A DNA stretch of 64,000 nt from positions 1-64,000 of IMG/VR virus record IMGVR_UViG_2654587728_000014. One strand, given 5' to 3'. Position numbers and translations under genes: made by a program. Shown here piece after piece: positions 3,385 to 20,968 of this stretch. The notes below the pieces were generated by a model that worked only from the letters and a program-made list of their open reading frames with translations, had not been told where the DNA came from and searched no databases. Source of the stretch: a virus. Lineage: Duplodnaviria > Heunggongvirae > Uroviricota > Caudoviricetes. The first letter of the stretch is position 1, and the number at the start of each line of letters is the position of its first letter.

Positions 3385-3548
3385 TCACGGTTGTGTGCTT
3401 TGAGCACATAGAAGACTTTGTGGCAGATATTGCCGTTATTTTTAACTGGTCGCCCGCCGAAATCTTCATGATGACGCCCGGCGAAGTGGTTAGCTGGCGT
3501 GAGCGGGCGGCACTTCGCAGCGGGAATGCAGACAATGAAGACTCTTGA
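3019..3548 (+). CDS. E': gpE+E' extended chaperone made by programmed -1 frameshift at TTTTTTG (3330-3336)
   Basis: slippery heptamer TTTTTTG inside E; the -1 frame continues as ORF 3312..3548 (FFERCGLWREER...NEDS). Confidence 0.65.
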
Positions 3549-4905: not shown

Positions 4906-4940
4906 ATGGCATCCACGCGGCGTTTCATTATTTGAAAAAG
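4865..4940 (+). repeat. Mu-like right-end terminal repeat region (putative transposase-binding sites)
   Basis: TGAT-N9-GATAAATG terminal motif, repeated GCGATAAATG(C/G)CA, then GTTTCATTATTTGAAAAAG; same motif at 10682. Confidence 0.55.
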
Positions 4941-4942
4941 AA

Positions 4943-5515
4943 TTACATTTCAGGTTGCGTTATGACAGTCCCAACAGGGTGATAGCGGTAGATCGTTGAC
5001 AGTCCAATATCATAGATAATTGCCAGCCGCTTTCTGTCATACCCTTTCTGGAGCAATCTTGCGATCTGCTCATGCTGCTCCTTCGTCAGTTTCGGGCGAC
5101 GTCCTCCAACTCTTCCTTGTGCTCGCGCAGCAGCCAGTCCAGCCAGCGTGCGCTCAACTATCAGTTCACGCTCCATTTCTGCCAGTGCACCCATCATATG
5201 AAAAAAGAACCTTCCCATCGGAGTGCTGGTATCGATTGAATCCGTCAGACTGCGAAAATTGACACCTTTTGCGCGTAGCTCTTCTGTGAGAGCAATGAGG
5301 TGTTTCATTCTTCTACCCAACCGATCCAGCTTCCAGACCACCAATGTATCCCCTCTTTTAAGGCACTTTAAAGCGCGTTTCAGGCCTGGTCGTTCCGACT
5401 TGGTTCCGCTCATTTTGTCCTCAAAAATCTGTTCACATCCTGCGCACATTAATGCATTGCGTTGCAAATCTGTGTTTTGGTCATTTGTTGACACACGTAT
5501 GTAGCCAATCAGCAT
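4943..5515 (-). CDS. gin: Gin/Hin/Pin-family serine DNA invertase (invertase 1)
   Basis: 190 aa MLIGYIRVSTNDQNTDLQRNAL...; catalytic Ser motif and C-terminal HTH; AAGGGAG RBS; ORF track 4943..5644 has an upstream non-native extension. Confidence 0.93.
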   Translation of the reverse strand: MLIGYIRVSTNDQNTDLQRNALMCAGCEQIFEDKMSGTKSERPGLKRALKCLKRGDTLVVWKLDRLGRRMKHLIALTEELRAKGVNFRSLTDSIDTSTPMGRFFFHMMGALAEMERELIVERTLAGLAAARAQGRVGGRRPKLTKEQHEQIARLLQKGYDRKRLAIIYDIGLSTIYRYHPVGTVITQPEM

Positions 5516-5569
5516 TAAAAATACTCCCTTTTGAGTGGTTAAAGTACTGAGATAATGTGGGGAGGATTT

Positions 5570-5597
5570 GAGAGATAAACGTTGGTTTGGGAGAAGG
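5570..5597. other. gix-like crossover site A (GAGATAAACGTTGGTTTGGGAGAAGG)
   Basis: matches gix/hix/cix consensus core AAACC-NN-GGTTT; inverted relative to site B at 7984-8011. Confidence 0.6.
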
Positions 5598-6048
5598 TTC
5601 GGCATTACCCGTTGGTGTGCCTGTTCCGTGGCCTTCAGCCACACCGCCTACTGGCTGGCTGAAATGCAACGGTGCGGCTTTTTCTGCTGAAGAATACCCG
5701 GAACTGGCAAAGGTTTATCCGACAAATAAATTGCCGGATTTACGCGGTGAATTTATTCGTGGCTGGGATGACGGACGTGGTGTGGATGCCGGGCGACAAT
5801 TATTATCTTCACAGGGGGATGCAATAAGAAATATTGAGGGATTCGCAGATGGCGGGATCGGTATGTCTTTTGATGCAATCAGAGGGGCTTTTTATGATGC
5901 AGGAACACGATCTGCGAGAATGCCGAATAACACAACTGATATAGGCAAAACCGATGACCTTGGATTCGACGCCTCTCGTGTCGTGCCAACAGCTAATGAA
6001 AACCGTCCACGTAACATCGCCTTTAATTATATTGTGAGGGCTGCATAA
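5587..6048 (+). CDS. tail-fibre variable C-terminal cassette (Sv type), no constant N-terminal part attached in this isomer
   Basis: starts at crossover site with GEGSALPVGVPVPWPSATPPTGWLKCNG, ends ...AFNYIVRAA; homologous to C-termini of S (43887..45341) and H (45962..47611). Confidence 0.75.
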   Translation: MGEGSALPVGVPVPWPSATPPTGWLKCNGAAFSAEEYPELAKVYPTNKLPDLRGEFIRGWDDGRGVDAGRQLLSSQGDAIRNIEGFADGGIGMSFDAIRGAFYDAGTRSARMPNNTTDIGKTDDLGFDASRVVPTANENRPRNIAFNYIVRAA

Positions 6049-6641
6049 TGAAACCTGTTTTTGATGAAAATGGGCTGGCTACAGTGCCGGGTGATATGCG
6101 TTGTTATTATTATGATGCAGTAACGTCTGAATATACGGGCTGGTCTGATGAATATATTAATACTGGCGTAAGTATGCCCGTTTGTTCCACTGGTATTGAC
6201 CCGGGCGAATACATTCCGGGAAGAGTGGCAGTATTTACGGGTAAGGGATGGAGCCATGAAGAAGACCATCGCAATGAGACCGTTTACTCAACTGAAAATG
6301 GCGCAGCTGTTACAGTGGATTATATCGGTGCCATCAAAGACGGTTATGTCACGCTTTCACCGTTAACGCCATACGATAAATGGGATGGTGAGAAATGGGT
6401 GACGGATACCGAGGCACAGCATAGCGCCGCAGTAGAAGCTGCAGAAGCACAGCGCCAGTCGCTGATTGATGCTGCAATGGCTTCCATCAGTCTGATTCAA
6501 CTGAAATTACAGGCCGGGCGGAAGCTGACGCAGCCAGAAAACACCCGACTTAACGCTGTGCTGGATTATATTGACGCGGTGACGGCAACAGATACCAGCA
6601 CAGCGCCGGACGTCATCTGGCCTGAACTGCCGGAGGCGTAG
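6048..6641 (+). CDS. tail fibre assembly protein (Mu U / P2 G family)
   Basis: 197 aa directly after Sv cassette; same family as 45348..45962. Confidence 0.85.
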   Translation: MKPVFDENGLATVPGDMRCYYYDAVTSEYTGWSDEYINTGVSMPVCSTGIDPGEYIPGRVAVFTGKGWSHEEDHRNETVYSTENGAAVTVDYIGAIKDGYVTLSPLTPYDKWDGEKWVTDTEAQHSAAVEAAEAQRQSLIDAAMASISLIQLKLQAGRKLTQPENTRLNAVLDYIDAVTATDTSTAPDVIWPELPEA

Positions 6642-7565: not shown

Positions 7566-8072
7566 CTATGCCGCCCTTACGATGTAATTAAACGCAATGT
7601 TACGGGGACGAATGGTCACATAATTAACCCCATCGCCTCGCGAAGGACCTGCAAATGAAAAACGGGAGAATCCAGGTTGGTTGTCAAGGATTTGGTCATA
7701 GTTATTGATTGAATGACCAGACCCAATGTCAAAATTACCTGCGTAATGAGAAAAACTTGTACCATCCTGCCGTGAAAGCAGATCGCGCCCTGTATCCACT
7801 TTTCGCCCGTCGTCCCATCCACGGATAAACTCACCGCGCAAATCGGGAAGACGGAGGGTCGGGTAGACTCTGGCCAGAACAGGATATTGTTCTTTTGTAA
7901 AGGCGCGCCCGTCGCACTTTAACCAGCCTGCTGGCGGTGTGGCAGTGGGCCACGGAACAGGTACACCAACGGGCAGCGCCGAGCCTTCCCCCAAACCAAC
8001 GTTTTCGTTTTTATCCCTACCTATACCAACTCTGTATTTTTCACGAAACAAAGAGGATGTTTTTTTATGCAA
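7566..8072 (-). CDS. tail-fibre variable C-terminal cassette (Sv' type), promoterless in this isomer
   Basis: LGEGSALPVGVPVPWPTATPPAGWLKCDGRAFTKEQYPVLARVYPTLRLPDLRGEFIRGWDDGRKVDTGR nearly identical to the H segment at 46275-46465. Confidence 0.8.
   Translation of the reverse strand: MHKKTSSLFREKYRVGIGRDKNENVGLGEGSALPVGVPVPWPTATPPAGWLKCDGRAFTKEQYPVLARVYPTLRLPDLRGEFIRGWDDGRKVDTGRDLLSRQDGTSFSHYAGNFDIGSGHSINNYDQILDNQPGFSRFSFAGPSRGDGVNYVTIRPRNIAFNYIVRAA
7984..8011. other. gix-like crossover site B (CCTTCCCCCAAACCAACGTTTTCGTT)
   Basis: about 21/26 identical to reverse complement of site A; lies just upstream of invertase 2. Confidence 0.6.
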
Positions 8073-8666
8073 ATTGGCTATATTCGTGTGTCAACAAATG
8101 ACCAGAACACGGATTTACAACGCAATGCACTGAACTGCGCAGGATGTGAACTGATTTTTGAAGATAAAATCAGCGGAACGAAATCAGCCAGACCGGGATT
8201 GAAAAAACTGCTCAGAACGCTATCAGAAGGAGATACGCTGGTTGTCTGGAAGCTGGACAGACTGGGCAGAAGTATGAAACACCTGATCACGCTTATTGAG
8301 GAATTGCGGGAAAAAGGTGTTAATTTCCGTAGTCTGACGGACAGCATTGACACATCAACACCCATGGGGCGTTTCTTTTTTCACGTCATGGGGGCTTTAG
8401 CCGAAATGGAACGTGAATTAATTGTAGAGCGTACACTGGCCGGGCTGGCAGCAGCACGCGCACAAGGACGCATTGGCGGACGTCGCCCGAAGTTGACAAA
8501 AGAACAACACGAGCAAATAGCGAGGCTGATTAAAAACGGTCATGACAGGAAACAACTGGCGATCATTTACGACATCGGCATATCGACGATTTATCGTTAT
8601 CACCCTGTAGGCGATATACAGGCTGAAGAAACAACCAGGCAGACTCAGGAAAATAAAAACCGCTAA
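8067..8666 (+). CDS. Gin/Hin/Pin-family serine DNA invertase (invertase 2)
   Basis: 199 aa MQIGYIRVSTNDQNTDLQRNAL...; paralog of invertase 1 in inverted orientation. Confidence 0.93.
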   Translation: MQIGYIRVSTNDQNTDLQRNALNCAGCELIFEDKISGTKSARPGLKKLLRTLSEGDTLVVWKLDRLGRSMKHLITLIEELREKGVNFRSLTDSIDTSTPMGRFFFHVMGALAEMERELIVERTLAGLAAARAQGRIGGRRPKLTKEQHEQIARLIKNGHDRKQLAIIYDIGISTIYRYHPVGDIQAEETTRQTQENKNR

Positions 8667-9193: not shown

Positions 9194-10681
9194 TCAATCT
9201 TTATCGTAAAAACTGCCACGCCCGGCACGGGCGCGCCGTTCCATTTCTGCCCTGACCATTTCGCCAATCAGTTTCGCCAGTTCGCGGGGATTCTGTGTAA
9301 CAACGTTATGCAGATGAACATGAATTTCACCGCCAAATCCGGAGGCAACAGGCTCCCGGTTACGGGAAGTTGCAGGAACTGATGCCACTGGCGATCGTAT
9401 AGCCTCCGCCACCGGGCGGGAGCTGGCCGCAACAACAGGGACCAGCGCCGGAGGCAGCGGAGCCGGAACCACGGGTGTGATAGTAATTGCGGGGGCAGGC
9501 TTACTGACCTGCGCAATCTTCCGCTCCTGCCACTCCCCACGAACAGCAAGTGCGCGGGGCAGGTTCTTAAAGACAATATCGCCGGGGCCAATGCGTTTTT
9601 TCGTCTCATCAACCAGCTTACCTGTGTTATCAGCAATTTTGCTGAGTCTGCGTAGCGTACCGGTATTGTTGTCTGTGAGCGGTTTGTTGTCTCTGGGTTT
9701 ATCGCCTTTTTTGTCGTCGACCTTATCTGACGGGGCCGGGCCGGGAGTCCATGGTTTCTGAACCATTTTCTTGAGAACCGGATCCCATTCCCACATTACA
9801 GGAGCCTTTGAAGCGTTCTCTATTTTCTTTCTCGCCCGTTCCGCTTCATCCGGAAGCACTCCGAGCTTTTCAAGTATCCACGCCAGTGAATCCATCAATG
9901 CTTTTGTTGGCGTCAGGACAAGCTCTATCGCTCCACCGAGTACCCTGCCGAATACCTCGCCAGCACTGGTACATTTATCCAGCGTTTCCTTGCTGGACTC
10001 CATCGGTGACAGCAGCGATTTAAACCAGTTAAAGACCTGAATAATCCCATCGCGCACGACATCAAAAACTGGACCGAACCGTTCAAAGGTTTCGCGCAAC
10101 GGAGCCAGCCGTTCCATAATCCCACTGAACACCCCTGCATAAAACGCCTTGATGGGTTCCCAGTATTTCCAGATGAGAACCGCCGCAGCCACAAACGCAG
10201 CAGCAATCAATCCGACCGGGCTGAACAGCGCCCCGATAGCGCCCCCCAGTAACGAAACGGAACCCGTCACCATTCCCCATAGTGCTGGCAGGAGCCTGAC
10301 AGCATTCATTGATCCGGTCAGGAGGGAAAAGCCAAGACGCAGTTTTGCCAGCGGGCCAGCAAGCACACCAATAGCCAACGACAACGAGCCGACCGTTGCA
10401 GTCATCGCCAGCAATGCCCCACCTGCAATCAGTAGCTGGCGCGTCAGTGCCGGATGGGCCTGCGCCAGCGCCGTCACCTTTGATACCACCCGCGTGAGCC
10501 ACTGCGTGACAGAACGCAGCGGACCGTCAATCAGATCTGCAATGCGGATGCGCAACCCTTCCCATGCACTGCCGAGTGATTTCAGATCGCCGTCAAGGTT
10601 GTTGGCCATAACCTTTGCTGTGCGTTCAGCCTCACCGCGCGCGCCTTCAAGTTCTTTTCTCAGTTTGGGTAAGGAGCCGTC
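9194..10681 (-). pseudogene. T: P2-like tape measure protein gpT, C-terminal part (upstream boundary is the Mu-like end at about 10681)
   Basis: ORF 9194..10609 (471 aa) with Gly/Ala-rich hydrophobic tape-measure segment; frame open only to an in-frame stop at 10658-10660. Confidence 0.78.
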
Positions 10682-10845
<164 letters not shown>

Positions 10846-11235
10846 TTACTCTTTTTTCTCCGTATCTGCATCGGGTTCATCAGCAAATAGCTTGCCCTGC
10901 ATCCGATCCAGTTCTTCTTTTCTTACCCGCTTAACCACGCTGTAGACCCACTGAAGCGAAACACCAAATTTGCGGGCCAGTTCGTGGTGGTTGCGTCCGT
11001 TAAACTCCCTGAAGATTTCCCGGTCGCGCTGACTGACCTTCCATACCATGCCCATCGGGAAATAAACGTTTTGCCCGCCCCAGACCTGCATCATTCGGTT
11101 CGCGACGGCCTGACCAATCTGGTCGGCAACTTCGGGCTCAATATCAATAATCTCGCGAACGGTCTCAGAGGTATGCTGTGCCAGTTCCACCAGGAGTTCC
11201 GGCCCCTTACTTCGAAACTGATTCAGGTCGCTCAT
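10846..11235 (-). CDS. mor: Mor/C-family transcriptional activator
   Basis: 129 aa; C-terminal HTH ...ELARKFGVSLQWVYSVVKRVRK typical of Mor/C; directly downstream of gemA-like gene. Confidence 0.78.
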   Translation of the reverse strand: MSDLNQFRSKGPELLVELAQHTSETVREIIDIEPEVADQIGQAVANRMMQVWGGQNVYFPMGMVWKVSQRDREIFREFNGRNHHELARKFGVSLQWVYSVVKRVRKEELDRMQGKLFADEPDADTEKKE

Positions 11236-11656
11236 GTTTGACTCCCGCAGCTCTGCGCTGCCACTTCTTCAGTTTCTCAATAACACTGCTTGCCTGTTCA
11301 GTACTGAGCCAGCGCAGGGCGCTGATGCCCGTTTCCCGCTTGATCCACCTCGCTAATGCATTTTCTGAACGGTCACGAACAATGCCGGCAGCAGCCATTT
11401 CAAGCCATAGCGCACGAATTTTCCTGGACTGCGGATGGTTATCCAGCGGTAAACCGGAGCTGGCTTTTCTGGCTGGTTTAACGCGAAAGCCTTTCTTTTT
11501 CATGGATTCCAGCACGCAGTTTAGTTGTGTGGTATCCATTCCTTTGGTTGAGGCTTTACCGGTCAGCCCCTGTAACATCTGGCGGTAGGTGTCTTCATCC
11601 ATACCCAGTTCATTACGGGCAATATGGATAAGCTGTATCAGGCGTTTTTTCTGCAT
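11207..11656 (-). CDS. gemA: GemA-like protein (Mu gp16 family)
   Basis: 149 aa; synteny with mor; family call from memory. Confidence 0.65.
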   Translation of the reverse strand: MQKKRLIQLIHIARNELGMDEDTYRQMLQGLTGKASTKGMDTTQLNCVLESMKKKGFRVKPARKASSGLPLDNHPQSRKIRALWLEMAAAGIVRDRSENALARWIKRETGISALRWLSTEQASSVIEKLKKWQRRAAGVKHERPESVSK

Positions 11657-11657
11657 A

Positions 11658-11864
11658 TCATCTCCTTTTTTTCAGTCTGTCGGCAACAATGTCGGTTGCA
11701 GCTGGCAGGGTGACTGGCCAGAACAACATGACGGCGGTCATGTACAGGATGTAATGCGCGGTGTCGTAGTGCCTGCCATAGCCCAGGGAACGATGAAGTC
11801 TTGCGCTGCATGATCCTGCGTACATATACCAGAAAAGAAAACAGACAATGGTTTCAGTAGTCAT
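11658..11864 (-). CDS. small membrane protein
   Basis: 68 aa from ATG after GGGGAGG RBS; hydrophobic (FLFWYMYAG..., LYMTAVMLFWPVTL). Confidence 0.45.
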   Translation of the reverse strand: MTTETIVCFLFWYMYAGSCSARLHRSLGYGRHYDTAHYILYMTAVMLFWPVTLPAATDIVADRLKKRR

Positions 11865-12084
11865 TCTGAATACCTCCCCATTCGATATGAATATTACGGG
11901 CAGCAATGACAGGGTCGTTATTCCACCATGCACCTGACATGTATTTTTCAACCTGTTCGCGTCCGGCAATAACACCAATTGTGATCCCCGGCCTGACGTT
12001 CTTAAAAAAGGCGCGGGCAAAAAGGTATCTGGCAGATATTCGGCAGGCTTTTAATTTCCGGCTTTTACCTGATAGCGTAATCAT
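11854..12084 (-). CDS. hypothetical protein
   Basis: 76 aa; GGAGG RBS; start overlaps upstream stop (ATGA coupling). Confidence 0.5.
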   Translation of the reverse strand: MITLSGKSRKLKACRISARYLFARAFFKNVRPGITIGVIAGREQVEKYMSGAWWNNDPVIAARNIHIEWGGIQNDY

Positions 12085-12764
12085 CTGGCCTCCAGTTTCT
12101 GTTGTTCCTGCCCACTGACCGGGCGGTGCAGTCTGACGTTCTGCCCTTCACGAAACCCCGCATAGCGCGAGGCGTCGCCATTGCGGCTTCTTCCCGGTTT
12201 ACGCGCCCTGGTGGTTTGCGTCTGCGGGTATTTATGTTCCAGCCACTGCTGCATCAGTTCACGCTCATCATCGGTCAGGGCAAAGGACTGTATTTCACTG
12301 ATAACGGCCAGCACCCAGCCTTCGGCAAACTGGTCTCCACGGCTGGTGCGGGTGGCGGTTTTTATTCTTTTGTTCTGTGCACTGATATACTGCTGACGCG
12401 CCTTTTTCAGCTGACGGGCCAGCACTTCCCAGGTGTATGCAGCCAGTGCCGCACGTTCCCGGTTGCCGTAGAACCCCACAGACGGATGCGTGCCGGGGTG
12501 AATGATGGAGTTAACACCAAATACCTCGCGGATGATGTTCATCAGGCCCAGCATGTAGCGCGGTGGACGGAGACTGCCTGTCGGCCAGTAGTGACTGATG
12601 GTTTCATCAATATCACTCATAGCAATGTCGGAATGTGTGATGCCGTGAACATCCATCAGTTTACGGGCTCGGCACAGTGCCAGAGCGGCCTCGTGCGGGT
12701 TGCCGGATGCGGCCAGCGCCAGCAACTTTTTCAGTTTCTCAATGTGTTTATTCTGGTCTGTCAT
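12081..12764 (-). CDS. hypothetical phage protein (DUF2786-like N-terminus)
   Basis: about 227 aa from MTDQNKHIEKLKKLLALAASGNPHEAALAL...; domain call from memory. Confidence 0.5.
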   Translation of the reverse strand: MTDQNKHIEKLKKLLALAASGNPHEAALALCRARKLMDVHGITHSDIAMSDIDETISHYWPTGSLRPPRYMLGLMNIIREVFGVNSIIHPGTHPSVGFYGNRERAALAAYTWEVLARQLKKARQQYISAQNKRIKTATRTSRGDQFAEGWVLAVISEIQSFALTDDERELMQQWLEHKYPQTQTTRARKPGRSRNGDASRYAGFREGQNVRLHRPVSGQEQQKLEAR

Positions 12765-12976
12765 TGTTCTGTATCTCCGGTATTTTTCTGCCGTTTCCAT
12801 GCCCGGACAGCGTCGGACAGCTCTTTCAGGCTGTATGCTGCTTTAAGCTTTTCCCATAACCACTGTGTTGTTATGTGCATCAGCAGGGCAGCCAGGGCTG
12901 CCCCCGCACTGAGGCATGTCGCCAGGCCAGTAAGAATCAGTATCCATGCGGTGATTTCCCTGAGTATGTCAGCCAT
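12761..12976 (-). CDS. small membrane protein
   Basis: 71 aa with one hydrophobic helix (ITAWILILTGLATCLSAGAALAALLM). Confidence 0.45.
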   Translation of the reverse strand: MADILREITAWILILTGLATCLSAGAALAALLMHITTQWLWEKLKAAYSLKELSDAVRAWKRQKNTGDTEQ

Positions 12977-12990
12977 TGAATGCCTCCCGG

Positions 12991-13287
12991 TTACTCGTTC
13001 GTGTAAATCACGCCCAGTCGTGCAGCCAGACGTTCCAGTTTTTTCTGTTTGTGGAAGTCAATCAGCCGGTCCATCCCCTGAAGGCGCAATTGCTCTGTCA
13101 TGATTTCCACGTCTGCCAGCTCTGCCGCGAGGTCGCTTTCGCTGCCCTGTCCGTTCAGATTGCGGGCAGCACTGGCCGCCAGTTCAGCGGCCTCTTCTGT
13201 CAGTTTCAGGGCCTGTGCGTCCGGCCCGAAACGCTGCAGGGCCAGACGGTAGAGGGCGGTGCGGGTGAGTATGGTGTTCCGTGTCAT
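12991..13287 (-). CDS. MazG-like nucleoside triphosphate pyrophosphohydrolase (putative)
   Basis: 98 aa with EEAAELAASA...AAELADV acidic helical motifs typical of small MazG/all-alpha NTP-PPases. Confidence 0.5.
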   Translation of the reverse strand: MTRNTILTRTALYRLALQRFGPDAQALKLTEEAAELAASAARNLNGQGSESDLAAELADVEIMTEQLRLQGMDRLIDFHKQKKLERLAARLGVIYTNE

Positions 13288-13296
13288 GCCGCGCCC

Positions 13297-13569
13297 TCAG
13301 TGCTTCCGGCTGACGGTGATGTGCAGGCCGCCTTCTGCAGTGGTTTCCATCCGGTACGGCACCTCATGCGCTGCCGTGTGGGTTAGTGTGTTCACCAGTA
13401 CCTGCAGGGCAGCCGCCTTTCCGTTGGTCGCCACAATGGCTTGAGCGGTCATGCTGATTAGCGCCGTCAGGACGTGCTTCACATCGGTGAGGTCGCGGCA
13501 TTCACACTCGTTGACATAGTGTTCAACAAGGGTTCGGGTGCGCTGTCGTGCTTCCTGTGGGGTAATCAT
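13297..13569 (-). CDS. hypothetical protein
   Basis: 90 aa ORF in early operon, coupled to neighbours. Confidence 0.45.
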   Translation of the reverse strand: MITPQEARQRTRTLVEHYVNECECRDLTDVKHVLTALISMTAQAIVATNGKAAALQVLVNTLTHTAAHEVPYRMETTAEGGLHITVSRKH

Positions 13570-13760
13570 TGCGAGTCCTCCCTGTCAGGGCGGGAGAATT
13601 CCATGACGGGCACGTCTGCCGAAAAATGCTGGCTGCAGTACGGGCAGACCAGGGTGACGCGTACCGCAGGGATGTGGTATTTACCGGACATCACGGCGAT
13701 GGCGCTGTGAAAACGCAGGGCTGTTATATCCCTCTCGCACTGAATACATTTAAATATCAT
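13566..13760 (-). CDS. zinc-ribbon protein (Com-like CxxC...CxxC)
   Basis: 64 aa MIFKCIQCERDI...VCPYCSQHF resembling Mu Com zinc finger. Confidence 0.5.
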   Translation of the reverse strand: MIFKCIQCERDITALRFHSAIAVMSGKYHIPAVRVTLVCPYCSQHFSADVPVMEFSRPDREDSQ

Positions 13761-13857
13761 GATTTAATTCTCCTCTGTTTCCGGCGTGCAGAAGCCCGCG
13801 GCGCTGACGTCGGAATAAAAAAGAAAATGTTTTTATTAAATAATTAACGTGGTGTGT

Positions 13858-14388
13858 TTACTGCACATCCTGCTCAAAAGGAATTATTGAAAAATCCTCA
13901 ATGTCGCTTTTAATGGAAATACCGGGAATATTTTTCACGGCCTCTTTTTCATTCAGGATAGCGTCTTTATTTATTTCCTCTTTTACACGAATAAAGCGCT
14001 CAAGCCCCAGACGTCTCAGCAGTTCAATGACATTATCCGCCCCGCGAATGCTGACTGACGGCGGACGGTTTCGCCACTGCACCTCGCCGGTGGTGAGGTT
14101 AGCGAACTTCACCTTCCCGTTGCCGGTCAGTTCATCACGGTGCGCCTCACACCATGTCTGGATACCGGACTGCAGTTCGGCCATGCGTTTTTTCAGGCTC
14201 TCGGTGAGCGGGGCATAACGTGCAGTGATGTCGCCAATGGTGTCATTCATTTCTGTTTCAGCCCTGACCAGTTCACGTTGCGCGTCACCAAGCAGTCTGA
14301 TTCCCTCAATGACCTCTTCGCGTGTCCCCGGCACCCAGAGTGCTGCTGCGGCTTTGATACGTTTTGCCCCTTTTGTACTTTTTGCCAT
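13858..14388 (-). CDS. gam: Gam-like host-nuclease inhibitor
   Basis: 176 aa; Mu Gam family by sequence and position downstream of B. Confidence 0.82.
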   Translation of the reverse strand: MAKSTKGAKRIKAAAALWVPGTREEVIEGIRLLGDAQRELVRAETEMNDTIGDITARYAPLTESLKKRMAELQSGIQTWCEAHRDELTGNGKVKFANLTTGEVQWRNRPPSVSIRGADNVIELLRRLGLERFIRVKEEINKDAILNEKEAVKNIPGISIKSDIEDFSIIPFEQDVQ

Positions 14389-14415
14389 ATTTTATGACTC
14401 CTCCTGTTGTGCTGA

Positions 14416-14685
14416 TTACCACAAAGATTCCGGCCACACGACGCGACAGCCGTGCAGTTCGAAAACGCCCTGACGGAAATGTCCCCTGTGGTCATGACCG
14501 GTATACAGATAACAGGCCTTTCCCTGCTCAAGCATGCGCATGCAATGCGCACTCCGGGAAACGCGGATGACAGGTTTGTTACCCCTGATGGTGATGCTTT
14601 GTACATCCGTGTTCGTCGCCTTAAGCGCCATAATGGCTGACTGCACTTTGCTGATTTGCTGGTTGATACCTGTGGTGGATTTCAT
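14416..14685 (-). CDS. hypothetical protein (occupies Mu kil position)
   Basis: 89 aa ORF between B and gam. Confidence 0.4.
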   Translation of the reverse strand: MKSTTGINQQISKVQSAIMALKATNTDVQSITIRGNKPVIRVSRSAHCMRMLEQGKACYLYTGHDHRGHFRQGVFELHGCRVVWPESLW

Positions 14686-14687
14686 TA

Positions 14688-15854
14688 TTAAACCCCTTTG
14701 ACAACGTCAGCGTTGACCTGTGGAACCCCGATTTCAGCGGCCAGATTCATGGCGGCTATTACCAGGTTACTGACGGCCAGCGGATACAGCAGGCTGACCA
14801 TATTTTTACGATGACTTCCCGGATTGCTCAGGCGGGCACGTATGGCATCCACTGCGCTGGCGTCCATAATGTCCGTCAGTTGTTTACCGGCCCGTTGCAG
14901 TTTGAACGTCAGAAACTCTTCAAGGTTATTGTCCAGAGGCAGAAGTTCGACCACCTCACAGCGCTGAACGACTTCACGGACTTCCATATTGCGTTCAGAC
15001 AGTTTTGTCGCCAGTTCCGGCTGGCCAATCAGCACGATGGACAGCAGTTTTTTGAAACCGGACTCCAGCTCAAAAAAGCGTTTGAGGTGTTTCAGTGTCG
15101 GAATGGGCAGACTGTGGGCCTCCTCAATCACCAGAACGTGGCTGAACCCCGCCTGGCTGCTGTCTTTCAGGACGCGATGCAACTGGCGAAAGCGGGCGTC
15201 CTGACTGCGTCTGATGCTTTCCAGTGGTGCGATGGTACTGATAATGGCTTCGGCAATCGCTGCTGCCTTCAGGGTTTTCCCTTTCACATCGTTGTCTTCC
15301 ATAGCGATGATGTATGGCTCGATAACAATTACCGGCGCATTCTCGCGGTTGATACGTTCAGTCAGGTCGCGGCGCAGCGTGGATTTACCCGCACCGGACT
15401 CACCGATGACGGCCATAAACCCACCATGACGGGCTGTCTGGTACAACGCCTCACGCACGTAGCGAATATCCGGGGTGGTGAACACATCATCAGAACCCTG
15501 CATGGCTTCGTCGGCGAACGGGTCACGGAAAAGACCAAACGCTTTTTTGGTTGCTGGAAATAACACCTGTTTTTTGAGTAACATATTCTCTTCCTCACTG
15601 AGGCTCGTTTTATCTGTGGTACCCGCTGTACGGGGCGTGGCCGCGCCCTGTACAGCATCAAAACTCTTCGTTGTATCAATCCCCTGACTTTCCAGCCAGG
15701 ACGCAAGACGCCGGCGCACTTCTCCGGGGCTGGTGCGGGGCCACGCGTTATGATTCACAATCTGGGCCAGCGTGGCCTCAGAAACATCGACAGCTCTCGC
15801 CACCACCGCCTGTGGAATACGGGCCTCTTTCAGTTGCTGCTTCAGTACCAGCAT
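14688..15854 (-). CDS. Mu B-like transposition ATPase
   Basis: Walker A AVIGESGAGKST, N-terminal HTH; probable start MLVLKQ after GGAGGG RBS; ORF track 14688..15893. Confidence 0.8.
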   Translation of the reverse strand: MLVLKQQLKEARIPQAVVARAVDVSEATLAQIVNHNAWPRTSPGEVRRRLASWLESQGIDTTKSFDAVQGAATPRTAGTTDKTSLSEEENMLLKKQVLFPATKKAFGLFRDPFADEAMQGSDDVFTTPDIRYVREALYQTARHGGFMAVIGESGAGKSTLRRDLTERINRENAPVIVIEPYIIAMEDNDVKGKTLKAAAIAEAIISTIAPLESIRRSQDARFRQLHRVLKDSSQAGFSHVLVIEEAHSLPIPTLKHLKRFFELESGFKKLLSIVLIGQPELATKLSERNMEVREVVQRCEVVELLPLDNNLEEFLTFKLQRAGKQLTDIMDASAVDAIRARLSNPGSHRKNMVSLLYPLAVSNLVIAAMNLAAEIGVPQVNADVVKGV

Positions 15855-15864
15855 GTTTCCCTCC

Positions 15865-17634
15865 TCAGTTGCCGTTAACAATGCTGATAACACTGCTGCG
15901 GGCCGGTGTGGTCAGCGTGGCCATGACTTCATCCAGTGCGGCTTCCGGTACGCCGTCCGGGTACTGTGCCGTTAACTGGCGGTAATGTTCCGGCGTCCAG
16001 GTAAGGCCGTCGGCGCTGAACTTATCGCGCAGGGCTTTCGCGGCCTCCACATGAGTCATGGGACGTTGTTCAGTGCGCGGCCCGCGTACGTCAGAGGCCT
16101 GACCACGCTTCGGCATATAGGCCGGAAGTGTGGTGTCGTCGATATGTTTATACGGGTCAAGCCGCCCGCCGAACGGCAGCGCCTTCGCCTTGCGTGCGGC
16201 GGCTGCATCTGCGGCGTTGTCTGTACCGGTAACCAGCGCTTCGGTTTCTTTTGCCGCCATCTGTGCCGGGGTTTCCGGCAGGGCTTTGTAACTTTCGCCA
16301 AATACCGCCGCGCCTTCAGCAAAGCCAAACTCGTTCTTTCTGACCTCTTCGACCAGGAAGAACGTCTCGTGGCCGTCCTCACCGGTCAGAACCACCTGTG
16401 CCACATCGCTGCGCCATGGGTTACGGGTAATCATCAGTTTTTCACCAACCAGTACGCCCGGTACCGTTGATACGTCAAATTCAGTGCCCCGGAACGAGAC
16501 ACGAAGTTTTGGCGTGACTTTGCGGAGTTCTGGTGCCGCCACAGCCAGTTCACGACATACCTCAACGGAAGGCGCTTTTTTCAGCTGCTCAGCAGTAATC
16601 TTCAGCCAGATATCCGTGCGGGTTTTACCGTGGCGGCTGTGAACAGCCGTGGCGTTAAAGTGGCTGCGCCATTTCGCGGCCAGCGCGTTGAGTTCTTCCA
16701 GACTGTGAACCGGCCGGAACTTCAGACCCGGCTCCAGCTTGCGTTCGATAATGTCACGCGCCTTTTCCACCTGTCCGGTGGCGCGGGCGTTATGCGGCTT
16801 GTGCGCTATCAGGTCGATGCCCAGTGAGCGGCACATGTTTTTCGTCATACCCGCGGTGTTTGCCGAGCCGGGGTCGAGATAGAGTATTTTCGGCACGCCG
16901 TGCAGCACGTCTGCGCCGCCACGCTCCTGCATGGCGTTGATAAGCACAGAACACAGGTTCTCACCTGATTCCGCGCCCGTCACATACTCAACGTAAATCC
17001 AGCCGCTGGCATGGTCGGTAATCTCGTAACTCCACACGCGGTCACTGGCGATACGGGCAAGGTTAGCGGGCTTGTTCTTGTAGAACTTCGCGCTGTCCAT
17101 CACCTGCAGCCCTTTATGTCCATTGCTCAGGTAGTAAAGCGTGCAGAGTGAGGCGTCAATCTGCCAGACATGATTGGGATGCAGACTGGCCACTTCGGTA
17201 TGTGGTGCAGGGGCATCCAGTTGTTCCGGGTGCAGGCCATAGTTACGCAGAGCACGGCTGATGGCATCTTCAGACAACGGGAAAAACTCACTGGTGGTTT
17301 CATCTGTTCTGCCTGCGGTGATAAAGCCGTTAGCCCGCAGGGTTTCCACTGCATCTGCGATGGAATAGAGACGCTTACCGTTCTTGCGGGTGGCCTCACG
17401 CAGTGTGGCAGATATCAGCGCGGCTTCGTCGCGGGTCAGGGCGCTGCGCCCGGCATCGGCGCGTTTTTTGCGTTTATCAGTCACAGATACCTCCTTCAGC
17501 CTGCGCAGCAGAGTGGCGCGGGACATGCCAAGTTCAGCACAGGCAGCGTCGTATATTGCACCGCGTTTACCATGCCCCGCGTCACGTGCCGCGCGGGCTG
17601 TTTCAACCAGTTTTTCAGTCAGTGCCGGGGTCAT
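15865..17634 (-). CDS. Mu-like DDE transposase (MuA family)
   Basis: 589 aa; large transposase immediately upstream of B-like ATPase; MuA-like N-terminal DNA-binding and core regions. Confidence 0.88.
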   Translation of the reverse strand: MTPALTEKLVETARAARDAGHGKRGAIYDAACAELGMSRATLLRRLKEVSVTDKRKKRADAGRSALTRDEAALISATLREATRKNGKRLYSIADAVETLRANGFITAGRTDETTSEFFPLSEDAISRALRNYGLHPEQLDAPAPHTEVASLHPNHVWQIDASLCTLYYLSNGHKGLQVMDSAKFYKNKPANLARIASDRVWSYEITDHASGWIYVEYVTGAESGENLCSVLINAMQERGGADVLHGVPKILYLDPGSANTAGMTKNMCRSLGIDLIAHKPHNARATGQVEKARDIIERKLEPGLKFRPVHSLEELNALAAKWRSHFNATAVHSRHGKTRTDIWLKITAEQLKKAPSVEVCRELAVAAPELRKVTPKLRVSFRGTEFDVSTVPGVLVGEKLMITRNPWRSDVAQVVLTGEDGHETFFLVEEVRKNEFGFAEGAAVFGESYKALPETPAQMAAKETEALVTGTDNAADAAAARKAKALPFGGRLDPYKHIDDTTLPAYMPKRGQASDVRGPRTEQRPMTHVEAAKALRDKFSADGLTWTPEHYRQLTAQYPDGVPEAALDEVMATLTTPARSSVISIVNGN

Positions 17635-17649
17635 AGCTTGTCTTCCCTG

Positions 17650-17967
17650 TTATCCGATTCTGGCGGCAATTTTTCTGGCGAGGTCGCACAGTGTTTCGCC
17701 ATCGCAGGTTTTCACCACGGTATTTACCGGTTGCGGTGCAACTACCGGGCGTAATGCTGACTGATTCTGCAGACGTCTTATCTGCTGCATCAGCATCACC
17801 TCCATCGTCAGTACAAACGGGTGCGTCTCCTGTGCGGGTACGCAGATTTCACCGGAAGGGGTCACCACGCGGAAACCCTGCACCATCTCCGGCAGCAGAT
17901 TACACAGTGCGTGCCCCAGTGCCTCCGGGCTGTCCATCAGGGTATTTTGTGTGTTATTCGTATTCAT
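17650..17967 (-). CDS. hypothetical protein
   Basis: 105 aa ORF in early operon. Confidence 0.45.
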   Translation of the reverse strand: MNTNNTQNTLMDSPEALGHALCNLLPEMVQGFRVVTPSGEICVPAQETHPFVLTMEVMLMQQIRRLQNQSALRPVVAPQPVNTVVKTCDGETLCDLARKIAARIG

Positions 17968-18887
17968 TACTGCATATCCTCCGGTCGGTTGATTTCAGGT
18001 TCCGGTTCGGTCAGCCAGGCGGGGGCATCGTTACCCGATGGAGCGGCCTCAAGGTCAAACGTCTCACGTAATGCATGAACACTGCGTTCAATCTGGCAGA
18101 CCAGACCGGCCATGAAATCTCTGGGGGTATCGATCATGTTTTTGGTGCAGTATTCACACAGGGTCTCAAAAACACTGGACAGCCGGACGGCGATAGCCGA
18201 TTCGGCCTCAACCGCTAATGCCGTCACTTCCGCCCGCAATTTTTTCAGTTCTTCGTCTGGCGGCGGAGGTTGCAGGCGCGATTTCTTCTCCAGTTTTGTG
18301 GCCAGTTCGTTGATTTTTTCGTCCTTTCCGGCAAGCACCTGTTGCTGAGCTGCGTTGGTTTCGCGCGCTTCACGCAGGGCGGCCTTCAGTTCGCGGCTGG
18401 TCATGCGATCAATATCATCAAGCGTTGCACCGGCGACGGTTCCACCATCAGCTAATGCGTCGAGTTCTTCGTCATCCAGAACCATCAGTTCATATAACTT
18501 GGTTTTTCCCAAAACGCTCAGCGCTGAGCGTTTTGGCTGTTCATCTCCATTGCCGAGAAATTTCACGCTGGCCTGCATCATGCGACGAGCTACCTGTGGT
18601 GCTAATCCGAGGTCGTTTTCCAGAATATTTGTGAAATCACCATGCGGTTCATTTTCTTTTAAGATGATCAGCCGCTTACCCGCTTCCAACATAGATTCAG
18701 CACTCTGCGCCATATAAAAACGTGCTTCGTGAACGATGCGTTCACGTTCATAAGGCAGTCCATCACCAAACTGCTGCATGATCTCCATGCGATGCTGTGT
18801 CATGGCATTCAGGCTGACGTTGAGATCATCCGACAGCGGTACATCGGCGTTCAGTTCAGTGTTAATCGGTGATTTGGTACGTCCCAT
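17967..18887 (-). CDS. hypothetical protein (DUF3102-like)
   Basis: 306 aa, acidic and coiled-coil rich; domain call from memory. Confidence 0.45.
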   Translation of the reverse strand: MGRTKSPINTELNADVPLSDDLNVSLNAMTQHRMEIMQQFGDGLPYERERIVHEARFYMAQSAESMLEAGKRLIILKENEPHGDFTNILENDLGLAPQVARRMMQASVKFLGNGDEQPKRSALSVLGKTKLYELMVLDDEELDALADGGTVAGATLDDIDRMTSRELKAALREARETNAAQQQVLAGKDEKINELATKLEKKSRLQPPPPDEELKKLRAEVTALAVEAESAIAVRLSSVFETLCEYCTKNMIDTPRDFMAGLVCQIERSVHALRETFDLEAAPSGNDAPAWLTEPEPEINRPEDMQ

Positions 18888-18897
18888 TGATTACTCC

Positions 18898-19212
18898 TTA
18901 CAAACGACTACCTGAAATGACACGTTGGTTAATTTCGTTAATACGATCCTGTGCACGTGCCATCTCGTTACTGTGGGCCATGGCGATCTGCAGTAACTGG
19001 ATGCCCGGTGCAAAACGTCCGTTCTCCAGTTTCAGAGCCAGCCCTTCTTCAATGAGGGTGTTGAGTGCCCGGTTGATGTTTGCCGGTGACTCGTGCAGTG
19101 CTGTCGCCAGTTCACCGTTAGAAATACCGTTCAGGGCATGACCGCGCAGCGCTTTGAGTACCCGGAGGATGCGACTGCCGGAGCTTGAAACATTCGTCTT
19201 ACTCATCTGCAT
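18898..19212 (-). CDS. HTH DNA-binding protein
   Basis: 104 aa with winged-helix-like segment ISNGELATALHESPANINRALNTLIEEGLA. Confidence 0.5.
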   Translation of the reverse strand: MQMSKTNVSSSGSRILRVLKALRGHALNGISNGELATALHESPANINRALNTLIEEGLALKLENGRFAPGIQLLQIAMAHSNEMARAQDRINEINQRVISGSRL

Positions 19213-19258
19213 ACCTCTTTTGCGATATGTGATAACCTTTTACAAAGACTCAAAATAT

Positions 19259-19447
19259 TTAGGCCGCCTGAGCTGTTGATTTCAGTCCCAACTTCACGGC
19301 GATTTCATGGGATTTACCGTAACGGGCTTTGGTCTGCCCGTTGAGAACGCGGTATACCTCATTGCGGTTGTAGCCGTTTTCTTCTGCCCAGCGGGTGAAA
19401 GTGATCCCGCGCTGGCGGAAGAGAGCTTTGACTTGTTCTGCAGTCAT
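19259..19447 (-). CDS. ner: Ner-like DNA-binding regulator
   Basis: 62 aa; pattern FRQRGITFTRWAEENGYN...GKSHEIAVKLGL parallels the Ner/Nlp family; divergent from repressor gene. Confidence 0.65.
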   Translation of the reverse strand: MTAEQVKALFRQRGITFTRWAEENGYNRNEVYRVLNGQTKARYGKSHEIAVKLGLKSTAQAA

Positions 19448-19499
19448 CGTTGTCTCCTTTGTTGATGCAATGATGTTTGCCTTATATGTGTTAGATTAT

Positions 19500-19547
19500 T
19501 GCTCATAATTATGAGCATATCAAGATAGAGATTCACTTTTATGAGCA
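19500..19547. promoter_or_regulatory. operator region: perfect palindrome TGCTCATAATTATGAGCA plus extra TTATGAGCA half-site over the repressor start codon
   Basis: seen directly in the ner/repressor divergent intergenic region. Confidence 0.5.
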
Positions 19548-19897
19548 AAGATATAGGAGAGCGCGTTATTTCTGTGAGGAAGAAAGCAGGGTTGAACCAG
19601 AGAGAATTTGCAGCTCGTTTAGGTATTTCTAATGGTGGTATCAGTCAGATTGAAAATGGAAAGGCGATGCCTGGAGGGGAGTTTCTGTTAAAGATGCATC
19701 AAGAGTTTAATGTTGATGTAAATTGGTTGCTCACTGGAATGAGCACAGATGGTATGACTAGAAACCAGAATCAAATTTCCCCAGAAAAACAAAAACTAAT
19801 AGATACTTTTGACGACATGACACCAGACCAACAACGCTCATTTCTTGAGATTGGGCGATTCTATACTCAGCCAAAACCAGGAAAAATCGCAGGCTGA
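19541..19897 (+). CDS. XRE-family HTH repressor (Mu c-like)
   Basis: 118 aa; HTH QREFAARLGISNGGISQIENGK; divergent from ner-transposase operon. Confidence 0.8.
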   Translation: MSKDIGERVISVRKKAGLNQREFAARLGISNGGISQIENGKAMPGGEFLLKMHQEFNVDVNWLLTGMSTDGMTRNQNQISPEKQKLIDTFDDMTPDQQRSFLEIGRFYTQPKPGKIAG

Positions 19898-19983
19898 TAC
19901 TGACCCGGACACAAAGGACAGGTGGTTGATCTGGATGCTTTCAGAAAACATCGCCAGTGACATAGTGGAAGTTGTTTGGTTTA

Positions 19984-20014
19984 CCGGAAAGCATTGTGCT
20001 TTCCGGTTTTGTTT
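19984..20014 (+). terminator. rho-independent terminator after repressor gene
   Basis: hairpin CCGGAAAGCA-TTGT-GCTTTCCGG followed by TTTTGTTT. Confidence 0.6.
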
Positions 20015-20778
20015 CAGAAGTTGCAGATTAGCAGTTCACGGCGCGGCGTGGGTTTACCCGCCAGACTGTAGTTGATATTCACTGTCTGTATGTTCAGTCC
20101 AGTGAACACCTCGCGCATCTGCGGGATGTCGTTCACCGAAATTATCATTTTTCCTCTGATGCACCGGGCCAGCTCTGCCAGCCGCGAGTAGTTCCCTTCA
20201 GGAAAATCCACACCATAGCCTTCCGTACCCAGGTACGGTGGGTCGCAGTAGAACAGCGTGTGCGGACGATCATAACGCTCAATGCACTGTTGCCAGTCCA
20301 TGTGTTCTATGACTGTTCTGGAAAGCCGCAGGTGTGCCGCTGACAGTTCTTCTTCAATACGTAGCAGGTTGAAGCGTGGCGGGGATGTGGTGGAGGTACC
20401 GAAGCTGTGCTCTGCCACCTTGCCGCCAAACGCCTGCTTCTGAAGGTAGTAGAACCGTGCCGCACGCTGGATATCCGTCAGTGTTTCTTCCGGGGTGATC
20501 TGCAGCCATTTGTAGATCTGACGGCTGACCAGCGCCCATTTGAACTGGCGGACAAATTCTTCCAGGTGATGCTTTACCACCCGGTACAGATTCACCAGTT
20601 CACCGTTGATATCATTGATGACTTCGATCTTGCCGGGTGTCTTAAGAAAATAGAGCGCTGCTGCCCCACAAAACGGCTCCACATAACATTCATGCGCCGG
20701 AAACAGCGGCAGAATGTGTTTTGCAAGGCGGCGTTTGCCACCAATCCACGGCACGATGGGTAATGTCTGCATTTTCAT
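20014..20778 (-). CDS. dam: DNA adenine methyltransferase (Dam-like, orphan)
   Basis: about 254 aa; IVPWIGGKRRLAKHILPLFP... and DPPY motif (FYCDPPYLGTEGYG). Confidence 0.85.
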   Translation of the reverse strand: MKMQTLPIVPWIGGKRRLAKHILPLFPAHECYVEPFCGAAALYFLKTPGKIEVINDINGELVNLYRVVKHHLEEFVRQFKWALVSRQIYKWLQITPEETLTDIQRAARFYYLQKQAFGGKVAEHSFGTSTTSPPRFNLLRIEEELSAAHLRLSRTVIEHMDWQQCIERYDRPHTLFYCDPPYLGTEGYGVDFPEGNYSRLAELARCIRGKMIISVNDIPQMREVFTGLNIQTVNINYSLAGKPTPRRELLICNF

Positions 20779-20968
20779 AATCTGCAAGCCTTTTACAATT
20801 ATTAAAAAATATGGCAGTCTGGTCAGGTCTCGCGAGACTGACTGAACCTTGGTCGGCTCACAGCGCATTCCTGTGGGGCGATGACCAGCCCGGCTTTCGG
20901 GTGCCGGGCTGGTCGTTCTTTCATGATGCGGCAGGGATGGCGGGATTTCTGTTAATGTGGTTTAGGGA

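Follow-up and report, generated by a model that had tools for sequence, protein, structure and literature searches.

Gene Content and Organization of the Early Region

Nine tightly packed genes occupy positions 11658-14685 of a 64,000-nucleotide stretch of tailed-phage DNA (IMG/VR record IMGVR_UViG_2654587728_000014, positions 1 to 64,000; hereafter, the window), and in all likelihood they belong to a BcepMu-like Escherichia coli prophage, of whose single early operon they form the accessory half, the one farther from the promoter. All nine open reading frames (ORFs) lie on the minus strand, between the ExeA-type transposition gene B (14688-15893) and the genes gemA (11207-11656; PF06252 GemA, E 8.3e-41) and mor (10846-11235; product 54% identical to BcepMu gp01), which share that strand and end the operon. 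The same nine genes are annotated by RefSeq on identical DNA, where the minus-strand order runs from helix-turn-helix regulators through a DUF3102 protein, the DDE transposase (A), the ExeA-type B and the nine genes to gp16/GemA and Mor.

Numbered in the order of transcription, g1 (14416-14685) encodes an 89-amino-acid (aa) protein of the HI_1482 family that is a probable distant homologue of Kil, and g2 (13858-14388) encodes Gam, a 176-aa DNA-end-binding inhibitor of host nucleases. An intergenic conserved hairpin element (13773-13828) separates these from g3 (13566-13760), a 64-aa CxxC...CxxC zinc ribbon, g4 (13297-13569), a 90-aa protein of phrog_3691, and g5 (12991-13287), a 98-aa predicted nucleoside triphosphate (NTP) pyrophosphohydrolase of the all-alpha MazG/HisE type. 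They are followed by g6 (12761-12976), a variable gene for a 71-aa single-pass membrane protein, g7 (12081-12764), which encodes a 227-aa protein with DUF2786 and DUF7168, g8 (11854-12084), a second variable gene (76 aa, phrog_3681), and g9 (11658-11864), a 68-aa membrane protein found as two diverged alleles. From B to gemA, the junctions in transcription order measure +2, +27, +97, -4, +9, +14, -4, -4, -11 and +1 nucleotides (nt), so that four are stop/start overlaps and the others are gaps of 1-27 nt, with the 97 nt between g2 and g3 as the sole exception. An earlier note on this DNA had described nine tightly coupled small genes between mor/gemA and B; the ORFs, their junctions and RefSeq all agree with the number and the coupling, although Gam and the 227-aa DUF2786/DUF7168 protein had gone unrecognized among the small genes.

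All nine are real, selected genes. Each has a PHROG family match (E 1e-36 to 1e-77), and each is under purifying selection when the ratio of nonsynonymous to synonymous substitutions (dN/dS; Nei-Gojobori) is computed against diverged orthologues from related viral contigs. The ratio is about 0.1-0.2 for g1, g3, g5, g7, and g9, and 0.3-0.4 for g6. For g4 it is 0.13 against the most diverged orthologue (73% identity) and 0.4-0.65 among close copies, while g8 gives 0.10-0.17 at 68-80% identity and 0.8-1.2 in the two closest pairs, which are nearly without substitutions.

The layout points to a single transcription unit. Between 10.5 and 19.7 kb of the window, the sole strong sigma-70-like site (19523-19495, minus strand) adjoins a divergent repressor gene, and no promoter- or terminator-like matches above shuffled expectation were found inside the nine-gene region. 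Leftward transcription would thus start at a Pe-like promoter near 19.5 kb and pass through the regulators, transposase A, B, the nine genes, gemA, and mor. Because all nine genes sit in one early operon, this layout predicts that their products appear jointly, within the first minutes of an infection or following induction. The region corresponds to the early "semi-essential" region of Mu-type phages.

Comparisons with bacterial genomes assign the host element to a BcepMu-like transposable prophage that is common in E. coli. Several E. coli chromosomes (EcPF7, TUM1857, and others) are 100% identical to window 11658-14685, and Escherichia phage PhiKM (genus Bcepmuvirus) is 98.6% identical. At least 80% of this stretch is present in 619 of 5,426 complete E. 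coli genomes (629 have any match), and the carriers of the prophage include O25:H4 and urinary-tract isolates. Mapped against strain EcPF7, the left end of the prophage falls at window 10684, just past mor, and the early operon diverges from the late genes, which is the BcepMu layout.

Conservation and Synteny of the Nine Genes

A profile of the g5 family recovered 80 viral contigs with which the gene order could be compared. Every g5 copy of at least 41% identity belongs to a Mu-like early region and is upstream of gemA and, in nearly every case, of mor; where the identity is 41% or lower, the copies occur in other contexts, with gemA/mor neighbors undetected. Among relatives with at least 52% identity to g5 in the MazG-like protein, the order is B, g1, Gam or DUF3164, zinc ribbon, an optional g4, MazG-like gene, DUF2786/DUF7168, small genes, GemA, and Mor. 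Even in relatives with as little as about 30-60% protein identity, the arrangement of the Kil-like, zinc-ribbon, MazG-like, and DUF2786 genes is preserved.

Variation is confined to the Gam/DUF3164 slot, g4, g6, g8, and g9. In one set of relatives (L006-L008, L025, L028-L035), Gam is replaced after the Kil-like gene by a 203-aa DUF3164 protein, and the genes flanking the slot, together with the downstream hairpin, are retained despite the swap, which suggests that Gam and DUF3164 are interchangeable modules. The g4 protein (phrog_3691, E 7.4e-55), which occurs in some relatives and is absent from others, matched no Pfam or NCBIfam family, so that its PHROG is its only assignment; its start codon overlaps the g3 stop (ATGA). 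Similarly, g8 (phrog_3681, E 6.5e-55) has no other family and is present in part of the relatives. The g6 protein (phrog_3958, E 1.7e-41) has one clear hydrophobic helix at residues 7-37 and is confined to the E. coli group; the gene is missing in L019, L021, and L026, and in L018 and L020 it is 70% identical and shifted in position. Some relatives carry in place of g6 a 169-aa MazG with a C-terminal extension.

The last gene, g9, can be read from a TTG codon as a 120-aa ORF, yet the 68-aa start is preferred because the phrog_6436 match (E 1.2e-44) covers residues 53-120 of the long form, and the RefSeq start agrees. By hand calculation, the short form has a clear hydrophobic segment at 39-61 and a second, weaker, aromatic-rich segment near 4-20. 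The two single-helix membrane peptides proposed for the region are thus borne out for g6, with its one helix, whereas g9 may have two. Copies of g9 in E. coli prophages are either 100% or about 40% identical. In g7, the strong matches to PF23771 (90.3 bits, cut-off 25.5) and PF10979 (39.3 bits, cut-off 23.9) place the protein in the DUF2786/DUF7168 families; as a point on the other side, its structure model returned no informative structural neighbor.

These patterns speak to the description of the region as cargo. The nine genes are lineage-conserved and syntenic, with the Kil-like, zinc-ribbon, MazG-like, and DUF2786 genes held in order inside a single Pe-driven operon, and they are not cargo in the sense of morons.

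Gam and a Candidate Kil Protein

The most secure assignment is g2, which is with certainty a Gam protein by its sequence: it matches PF07352 (E 1.9e-40) over profile positions 1-148 of 149 and phrog_491 (E 6.7e-73), and is 61% identical to Mu Gam over 169 aa. As a member of this family, it would bind linear DNA ends and shield them from host exonucleases.

The first gene, g1, begins 2 nt after the B stop codon, the same first-gene position held by Mu kil, which begins 18 nt after B. Its product belongs to phrog_2041 (E 1e-36) and is named "HI_1482 family protein" by RefSeq, but it also shows weak, full-length similarity to Kil PHROGs, matching phrog_6381 over residues 7-87 (E 0.023) and phrog_2743, the PHROG of Mu Kil, at E 0.21. 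The similarity is reciprocal, as Mu Kil in turn matches phrog_2041, 7 of 11 members of the g1 family match phrog_6381, and Mu Kil is the best non-self match of a hidden Markov model (HMM) of the g1 family among 672 sequences (E 0.046). Columns common to the g1-Kil alignment include RP-x-I and L-x-x-C-x-[IV]-x-W, among others. Set against this is the level of the E-values, 0.02-0.2, on which the relationship rests. Taking the reciprocal, colinear, weak homology and the matching position together, we consider a Kil-like role for g1 on balance probable. A diverged Kil-type protein would block host cell division, which makes g1 a candidate cell-division inhibitor not so named in any database. A further weak relative of g1 is BcepMu gp07 (phrog_2041, E 0.008). 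With Gam certain and a Kil-like protein likely, the proposal that the region holds host-takeover functions is plausible.

A Conserved Hairpin Downstream of gam

The 97 nt that separate g2 from g3 fold more stably than shuffled controls (z = -2.75). On the minus strand, the element at 13773-13828 consists of a U-rich tract, then a hairpin with an imperfect stem of about 15 bp, then AAACAG; it lies 12 nt upstream of the g3 start codon, and the AGAGGAG Shine-Dalgarno sequence overlaps its 3' end. In all close relatives, the hairpin is found upstream of g3 whether the preceding gene encodes Gam or DUF3164. A pattern scan gave one copy in the window and one copy per contig in 80 Mu-like viral contigs, 78 of which could be oriented to yield 43 distinct variants. 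In these 78 contigs, the hairpin always stands 20-26 nt before the next start codon, and the gene that follows mostly encodes a zinc ribbon, otherwise a lipoprotein-like product of 61 aa or an unrelated one of 69 aa.

The structure is predicted independently by RNAalifold, and two basal pairs outside the search pattern show compensatory changes (UA to AU and UA to CG, in either direction). Conservation should not be overread here, since the search pattern at least partly dictated the invariance of the core in the 78-contig set, and we give that invariance no weight. With a covariance model built on this set, the element was recognized in Mu-like contigs of greater divergence (E 7e-7 to 0.4), between DUF3164/Gam and the MazG-like gene, as well as in phage Mu itself (L089), at 6351-6407 in the gap between gam and gp11 (22 bits, E about 0.05). 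The distant copies, including that of Mu, have the stems GGCGU/ACGCC, GGCGC/GCGCC, and GGCGCGA/UCGCGCC; their folding energies range from -14.5 to -22.3 kcal/mol, and a CGUCAGG-like loop motif is retained in every one. Rfam covariance models gave no match at E <= 1 in window 10500-20000, and a literature search for a post-gam stem-loop in Mu returned nothing relevant.

The hairpin most likely acts on the mRNA, where it may govern processing or stability or be bound by a protein. It stands just after gam, at the border between the conserved transposition/Kil/Gam block and the more variable genes downstream. Two other roles were considered and set aside: an intrinsic terminator was rejected, as no U-tract follows on either strand, and an operator tied to the zinc ribbon is unlikely, as the hairpin persists with a different downstream gene. 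A separate possibility is that the element acts at the DNA level, or is a functionless remnant repeat. An unusually invariant core and the conserved loop motif would suit a sequence-specific DNA-binding site, the window copy has an A-C mismatch that becomes a G-U wobble only on the opposite strand, and, the element being a palindrome, a weak covariance-model score is obtained on the reverse strand too. However, other copies carry G-U wobbles permitted on the sense strand only, the stems differ between lineages with pairing kept, and the fixed orientation, the 20-26 nt distance to a start codon, and the presence of exactly one copy per genome fit an mRNA element. We therefore regard action at the DNA level or loss of function as rather unlikely. 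If the mRNA interpretation holds, the hairpin would be an undescribed cis-acting RNA element of Mu-like phages, either bounding expression or mRNA stability or acting as an operator for an RNA-binding protein from phage or host. It offers a cheap, well-defined target for studying how transposable phages grade expression along a long early transcript.

The Zinc Ribbon g3 and Its Relationship to Mu Com

Immediately after the hairpin, g3 belongs to phrog_3401 (E 1.6e-40), and its four cysteines (C5xxC8...C39xxC42) are all conserved in relatives at 30-100% identity. In all relatives with a MazG-like protein at least 52% identical to g5, it immediately precedes the MazG-like gene, apart from an intervening g4 where there is one. 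The earlier note had called this 64-aa protein a Com-like zinc ribbon. Mu Com does resemble it in being small (62 aa), in having four zinc-binding cysteines, and in coming from a Mu-type phage, and Mu Com is also the best non-self match of the g3-family HMM among 672 sequences (E 0.018). That match, however, is made through two isolated CxxC knuckles that are not colinear. A Pfam scan of g3 (E <= 0.1) gave sub-threshold generic zinc-finger matches and no Com family, and Mu Com belongs to phrog_13819/6417, which differ from the PHROG of g3. The CxxC pairs are 30 residues apart in g3 versus 16 in Com (C6, C9, C26, C29). In Com, a compact CCCC finger at the N terminus precedes a disordered tail (PMC6483171), whereas the finger of g3 spans most of the protein. 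Their locations differ as well, in that com overlaps mom, the gene whose translation Com activates, at the right end of the Mu genome and g3 lies in an early operon, where the RefSeq annotation of the identical region has no mom gene after g3; g4 and the MazG-like gene follow instead. Because sequence, cysteine spacing, and gene context all disagree, we reject the Com-like reading and assign g3 as a real zinc ribbon that is not a member of the Com family.

A related proposal is that g3, whatever its descent, works as Com does, activating translation by binding early mRNA and opening a structure in it, for example to the benefit of g4 or the MazG-like gene. Its size and cysteines, the HMM match, the overlap of its stop codon with the g4 start, its constant place upstream of the MazG-like gene in close relatives, and the conserved hairpin just upstream would all suit such a function. 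The same hairpin nevertheless persists ahead of genes other than zinc ribbons, and in Mu, where no zinc ribbon stands at that place. Given this and the disagreements with Com listed above, we think a Com-like mechanism very improbable. It may be that g3 is a regulator or partner of the MazG-like protein.

Other candidate relationships of g3 were rejected. Similarity to the Mu zinc-ribbon proteins gp6 and gp13 is limited to a CPxCS knuckle. An apparent zinc ribbon-MazG fusion (P0036) was not accepted as a physical partnership, as it comes from uncorrected long-read assemblies in which neighboring phage genes are fragmented; it is counted solely as zinc ribbon/MazG adjacency in a phage without g4. 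In the GenBank record of PhiKM, a plus-strand ORF (21969-22190) is called opposite the minus-strand zinc-ribbon gene; this is probably a mis-call, with RefSeq, PHROGs, and conservation all favoring the minus-strand gene.

The MazG-Like Protein g5

The identification of the 98-aa product of 12991-13287 as MazG-like is upheld by its PHROG, its metal-binding motif, and the Pfam matches of its family. It matches phrog_2245, "nucleoside triphosphate pyrophosphohydrolase" (E 2.8e-34), and newer RefSeq records name the identical protein [quoted passage not shown] An exhaustive profile search showed that its family is large, with 10,760 cluster representatives at E <= 1e-3, mostly of 90-110 aa. Among 73 diverse relatives, Pfam MazG (PF03819) is matched by 18 (best E 2.2e-5), PRA-PH by 4, and MazG-like by 3. 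The motif EExxE...ExxD is formed by E31-E32-x-x-E35 and E56-x-x-D59. In 22 close relatives E31, E32, E56, and D59 are invariant and E35 nearly so; in the 73 diverse relatives E31 and D59 are invariant and the other three positions are at least 90% conserved. A profile of these 73 sequences weakly matches the solved MazG proteins 5ie9, 2q73/2q5z, 2gta, and 1vmg with the motif in register, and g5 has in common with solved MazG and HisE structures an all-alpha helical-bundle fold, its nearest structural neighbors being archaeal MazG, HisE, and the integron iMazG.

Several results weigh against the assignment. As a single sequence, g5 is sub-threshold for Pfam and NCBIfam (PRA-PH, E 0.047; hisI, E 0.035), a search of Protein Data Bank sequences by single-sequence phmmer and by a close-relative profile gave no meaningful relative, the AlphaFold model has a predicted local distance difference test (pLDDT) score of 78 with helices 3 and 4 drawn as one long helix, and all Foldseek E-values are above 0.1. 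On the whole of this evidence, we accept g5 as a member of the MazG/HisE superfamily with a competent metal site. It is predicted to be a small oligomeric Mg2+-dependent enzyme that cleaves the alpha-beta phosphoanhydride of a (d)NTP or of a nucleotide of the guanosine tetra- or pentaphosphate ((p)ppGpp) type.

What such an enzyme does in an early operon can be approached through its chemistry. MazG enzymes cut the alpha-beta phosphoanhydride of NTP-like substrates, a bond that cyclic oligonucleotides and glycocyclic ADP-ribose (gcADPR) do not have, and archaeal MazG, HisE, and the integron iMazG act on NTP, dNTP, or phosphoribosyl-ATP (PR-ATP) substrates. To our knowledge, substrate specificity in the MazG superfamily cannot be read from sequence. 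Our tentative preference is for adjustment or house-cleaning of the nucleotide pool, including the alarmone pool, during replicative transposition.

The closest functional precedent among phages is Atd1, the MazG-like protein of Pectobacterium phage PcCB7V, which hydrolyzes ppGpp (Km about 50 uM) but not ribonucleoside triphosphates (rNTPs) or cyclic di-GMP (c-di-GMP), lowers cellular alarmone levels, and relieves TIR-STING and retron-TIR toxicity (bioRxiv 10.1101/2022.06.09.495361). Atd1 is therefore a precedent for a phage MazG in counter-defense, acting through (p)ppGpp hydrolysis. It resembles g5 in being phage-encoded and in having a single catalytic MazG domain, and it differs in its context, beside a phage nucleotidyltransferase. 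A tblastn search of g5 against 50,697 phage records (E <= 1e-3) matched four Mu-like phages and no others; because of this result, we see no close tie between g5 and any characterized anti-defense MazG, Atd1 included.

This comparison bears on two narrower roles. One is that g5 is a specific (p)ppGpp hydrolase, Atd1-like without being a close relative, that would block the stringent response and alarmone-triggered toxins during replicative transposition. The activity of Atd1, the minimal single-domain architecture and catalytic motif seen in both proteins, and the expected early expression of g5 would fit. Against this stand the lack of a tblastn relationship to other phage MazG genes, the NTP, dNTP, or PR-ATP substrates of its nearest structural neighbors, and the unreadability of substrate from sequence in this superfamily, and we judge (p)ppGpp hydrolysis as the specific function somewhat unlikely.

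The other starts from the suggestion of the earlier note that small MazG-like enzymes may counter nucleotide-signaling defenses: g5 would be an anti-defense factor that destroys nucleotide messengers of the cyclic oligonucleotide-based antiphage signaling system (CBASS), Thoeris, or a similar type, with its neighbors as exchangeable counter-defense cargo. An early-expressed small enzyme in a kind of region known to house host-takeover functions, the precedent of Atd1, and the differences between copies in g6, g8, g9, and the Gam/DUF3164 slot lend this idea some appeal. Messengers of the NTP type would also be chemically suitable: the Kongming system uses deoxyinosine triphosphate (dITP) as an immune messenger, for which the known phage counter-measure is a deoxynucleoside monophosphate (dNMP) phosphatase, not a MazG (bioRxiv 10.1101/2024.12.20.629578). 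However, because MazG chemistry needs an alpha-beta phosphoanhydride, direct cleavage of the cyclic messengers of CBASS, Thoeris, or Pycsar by g5 is unlikely; Atd1 itself spares c-di-GMP and rNTPs, g5 is lineage-conserved and syntenic rather than variable, and its tblastn matches stay within Mu-like phages. PADLOC gave no match for the eight proteins scanned (all but Gam), a result that says little, as PADLOC covers defense systems and not anti-defense. A literature search for MazG in Mu-like phages returned nothing relevant. We thus consider the anti-defense proposal as a whole, and equally a direct anti-signal role for g5, distinctly unlikely, and assign what likelihood remains to g5 being inactive or acting otherwise. 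Substrates that MazG chemistry would allow are (p)ppGpp and dITP-like or other non-canonical NTPs.

Placement of the Prophage in the Window

The Mu-like prophage lies within a second, P2-like prophage, inserted in the tape-measure gene of the latter. The N-terminal portion of the tape-measure gene (3499-4864, plus strand) meets the Mu-like right end (4865-5774) at 4865, and its C-terminal part, on the opposite strand (9194-10683, minus strand), meets the Mu-like left end at 10684. A 6-bp target duplication (CGTCAC/GTGACG) marks the insertion, and the tape-measure reading frame runs on across the junctions. In EcPF7 and TUM1857, the same prophage occupies another site, between araH and otsB. 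Both prophage ends in the window read from the junction into TGAT in the same direction, and the Mu-like right end with its invertase lies about 40 kb from its own tail-fiber segment; invertase genes are found at 4943-5644 (minus strand) and 8067-8666 (plus strand). The same-direction ends and the distance of the right end from its tail-fiber segment imply an inversion of about 40 kb (window about 5774 to 46479) between the invertible tail-fiber regions of the two prophages, either biological or an assembly artifact.

The prophage also carries a gene for a DNA adenine methylase (20014-20868, minus strand), flanked by its immunity region and its lysis genes, and RefSeq annotates a DNA adenine methylase on the identical DNA in EcPF7. 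This enzyme, outside the nine-gene region, is a conventional anti-restriction candidate.

Significance of the Assignments

In descending order of security, the assignments are Gam, the MazG-like g5, the Kil-like g1, the unassigned g3, g4, and g6 to g9, and the hairpin as an mRNA element. The DNA, the gene calls, and the name "NTP pyrophosphohydrolase" are already known from RefSeq and PHROGs; the new points are modest: g1 is likely homologous to Kil, the zinc-ribbon and MazG-like genes are adjacent, Mu-like phages seem to have taken up MazG-type enzymes repeatedly, and a conserved post-gam hairpin is common to this prophage and Mu. Were the zinc ribbon and the MazG-like protein to form a counter-defense module, it would remove an alarm nucleotide of the NTP type, with (p)ppGpp, dITP, and chain-terminating NTPs as examples. 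That at least one of two proposals is both true and new, this module or the hairpin as a new cis-acting RNA element of Mu-like phages, is possible, but we would not count on it. About one complete E. coli genome in nine carries the prophage, yet of the nine accessory genes in its early operon, seven are without a known role.

Comparison with Known Systems

Single-domain MazG-like NTP pyrophosphohydrolases such as Sulfolobus SSO3215 (1vmg), the integron iMazG (2q5z/2q73), Bacillus subtilis YpjD, HisE, and DCTPP1 are, like g5, all-alpha proteins of about 90-110 aa that carry the EExxE...ExxD motif. They are only about 19-28% identical to g5 over the aligned parts, and g5 falls in a large family of its own, whose closer viral-contig members reside in Mu-like early regions.

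The early region of phage Mu occupies the same position between B and gemA/mor and follows the same logic of a single early operon. It likewise has a Kil-like gene directly after B, a Gam protein with the 61% identity given above, and a gap of about 97 nt with a hairpin after gam. Beyond these features the two diverge: none of the Mu early proteins gp6-gp9 and gp11-gp14 matches any of the nine proteins, the MazG-like and DUF2786 proteins included, and the element studied here differs from Mu in being arranged as BcepMu is, its early operon and late genes diverging.

BcepMu (gp01-gp08) is closer in its framework, with B 59%, Mor 54%, and GemA 44% identical. In its early region, a DUF3164 protein stands in the slot that relatives fill with DUF3164 or Gam, HU-like and SSB-like genes take the place of g3, g4, and g6 to g9, and a MazG-type "pyrophosphatase," gp06 (L090, 2668-3105), is encoded. 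This gp06 differs from g5 in length (145 aa), in PHROG (phrog_5658), and in lying upstream, on the other side, of DUF3164. Orthology of the two was rejected: hhalign gives E 0.35, with only the ExxD motif in common. Because gp06 and g5 differ in PHROG, position, and profile, MazG-type enzymes seem to have been recruited independently, and more than once, by Mu-like early operons. Their recurrence in BcepMu and in the E. coli prophage points to a need for manipulation of nucleotide pools or alarmones during replicative transposition.

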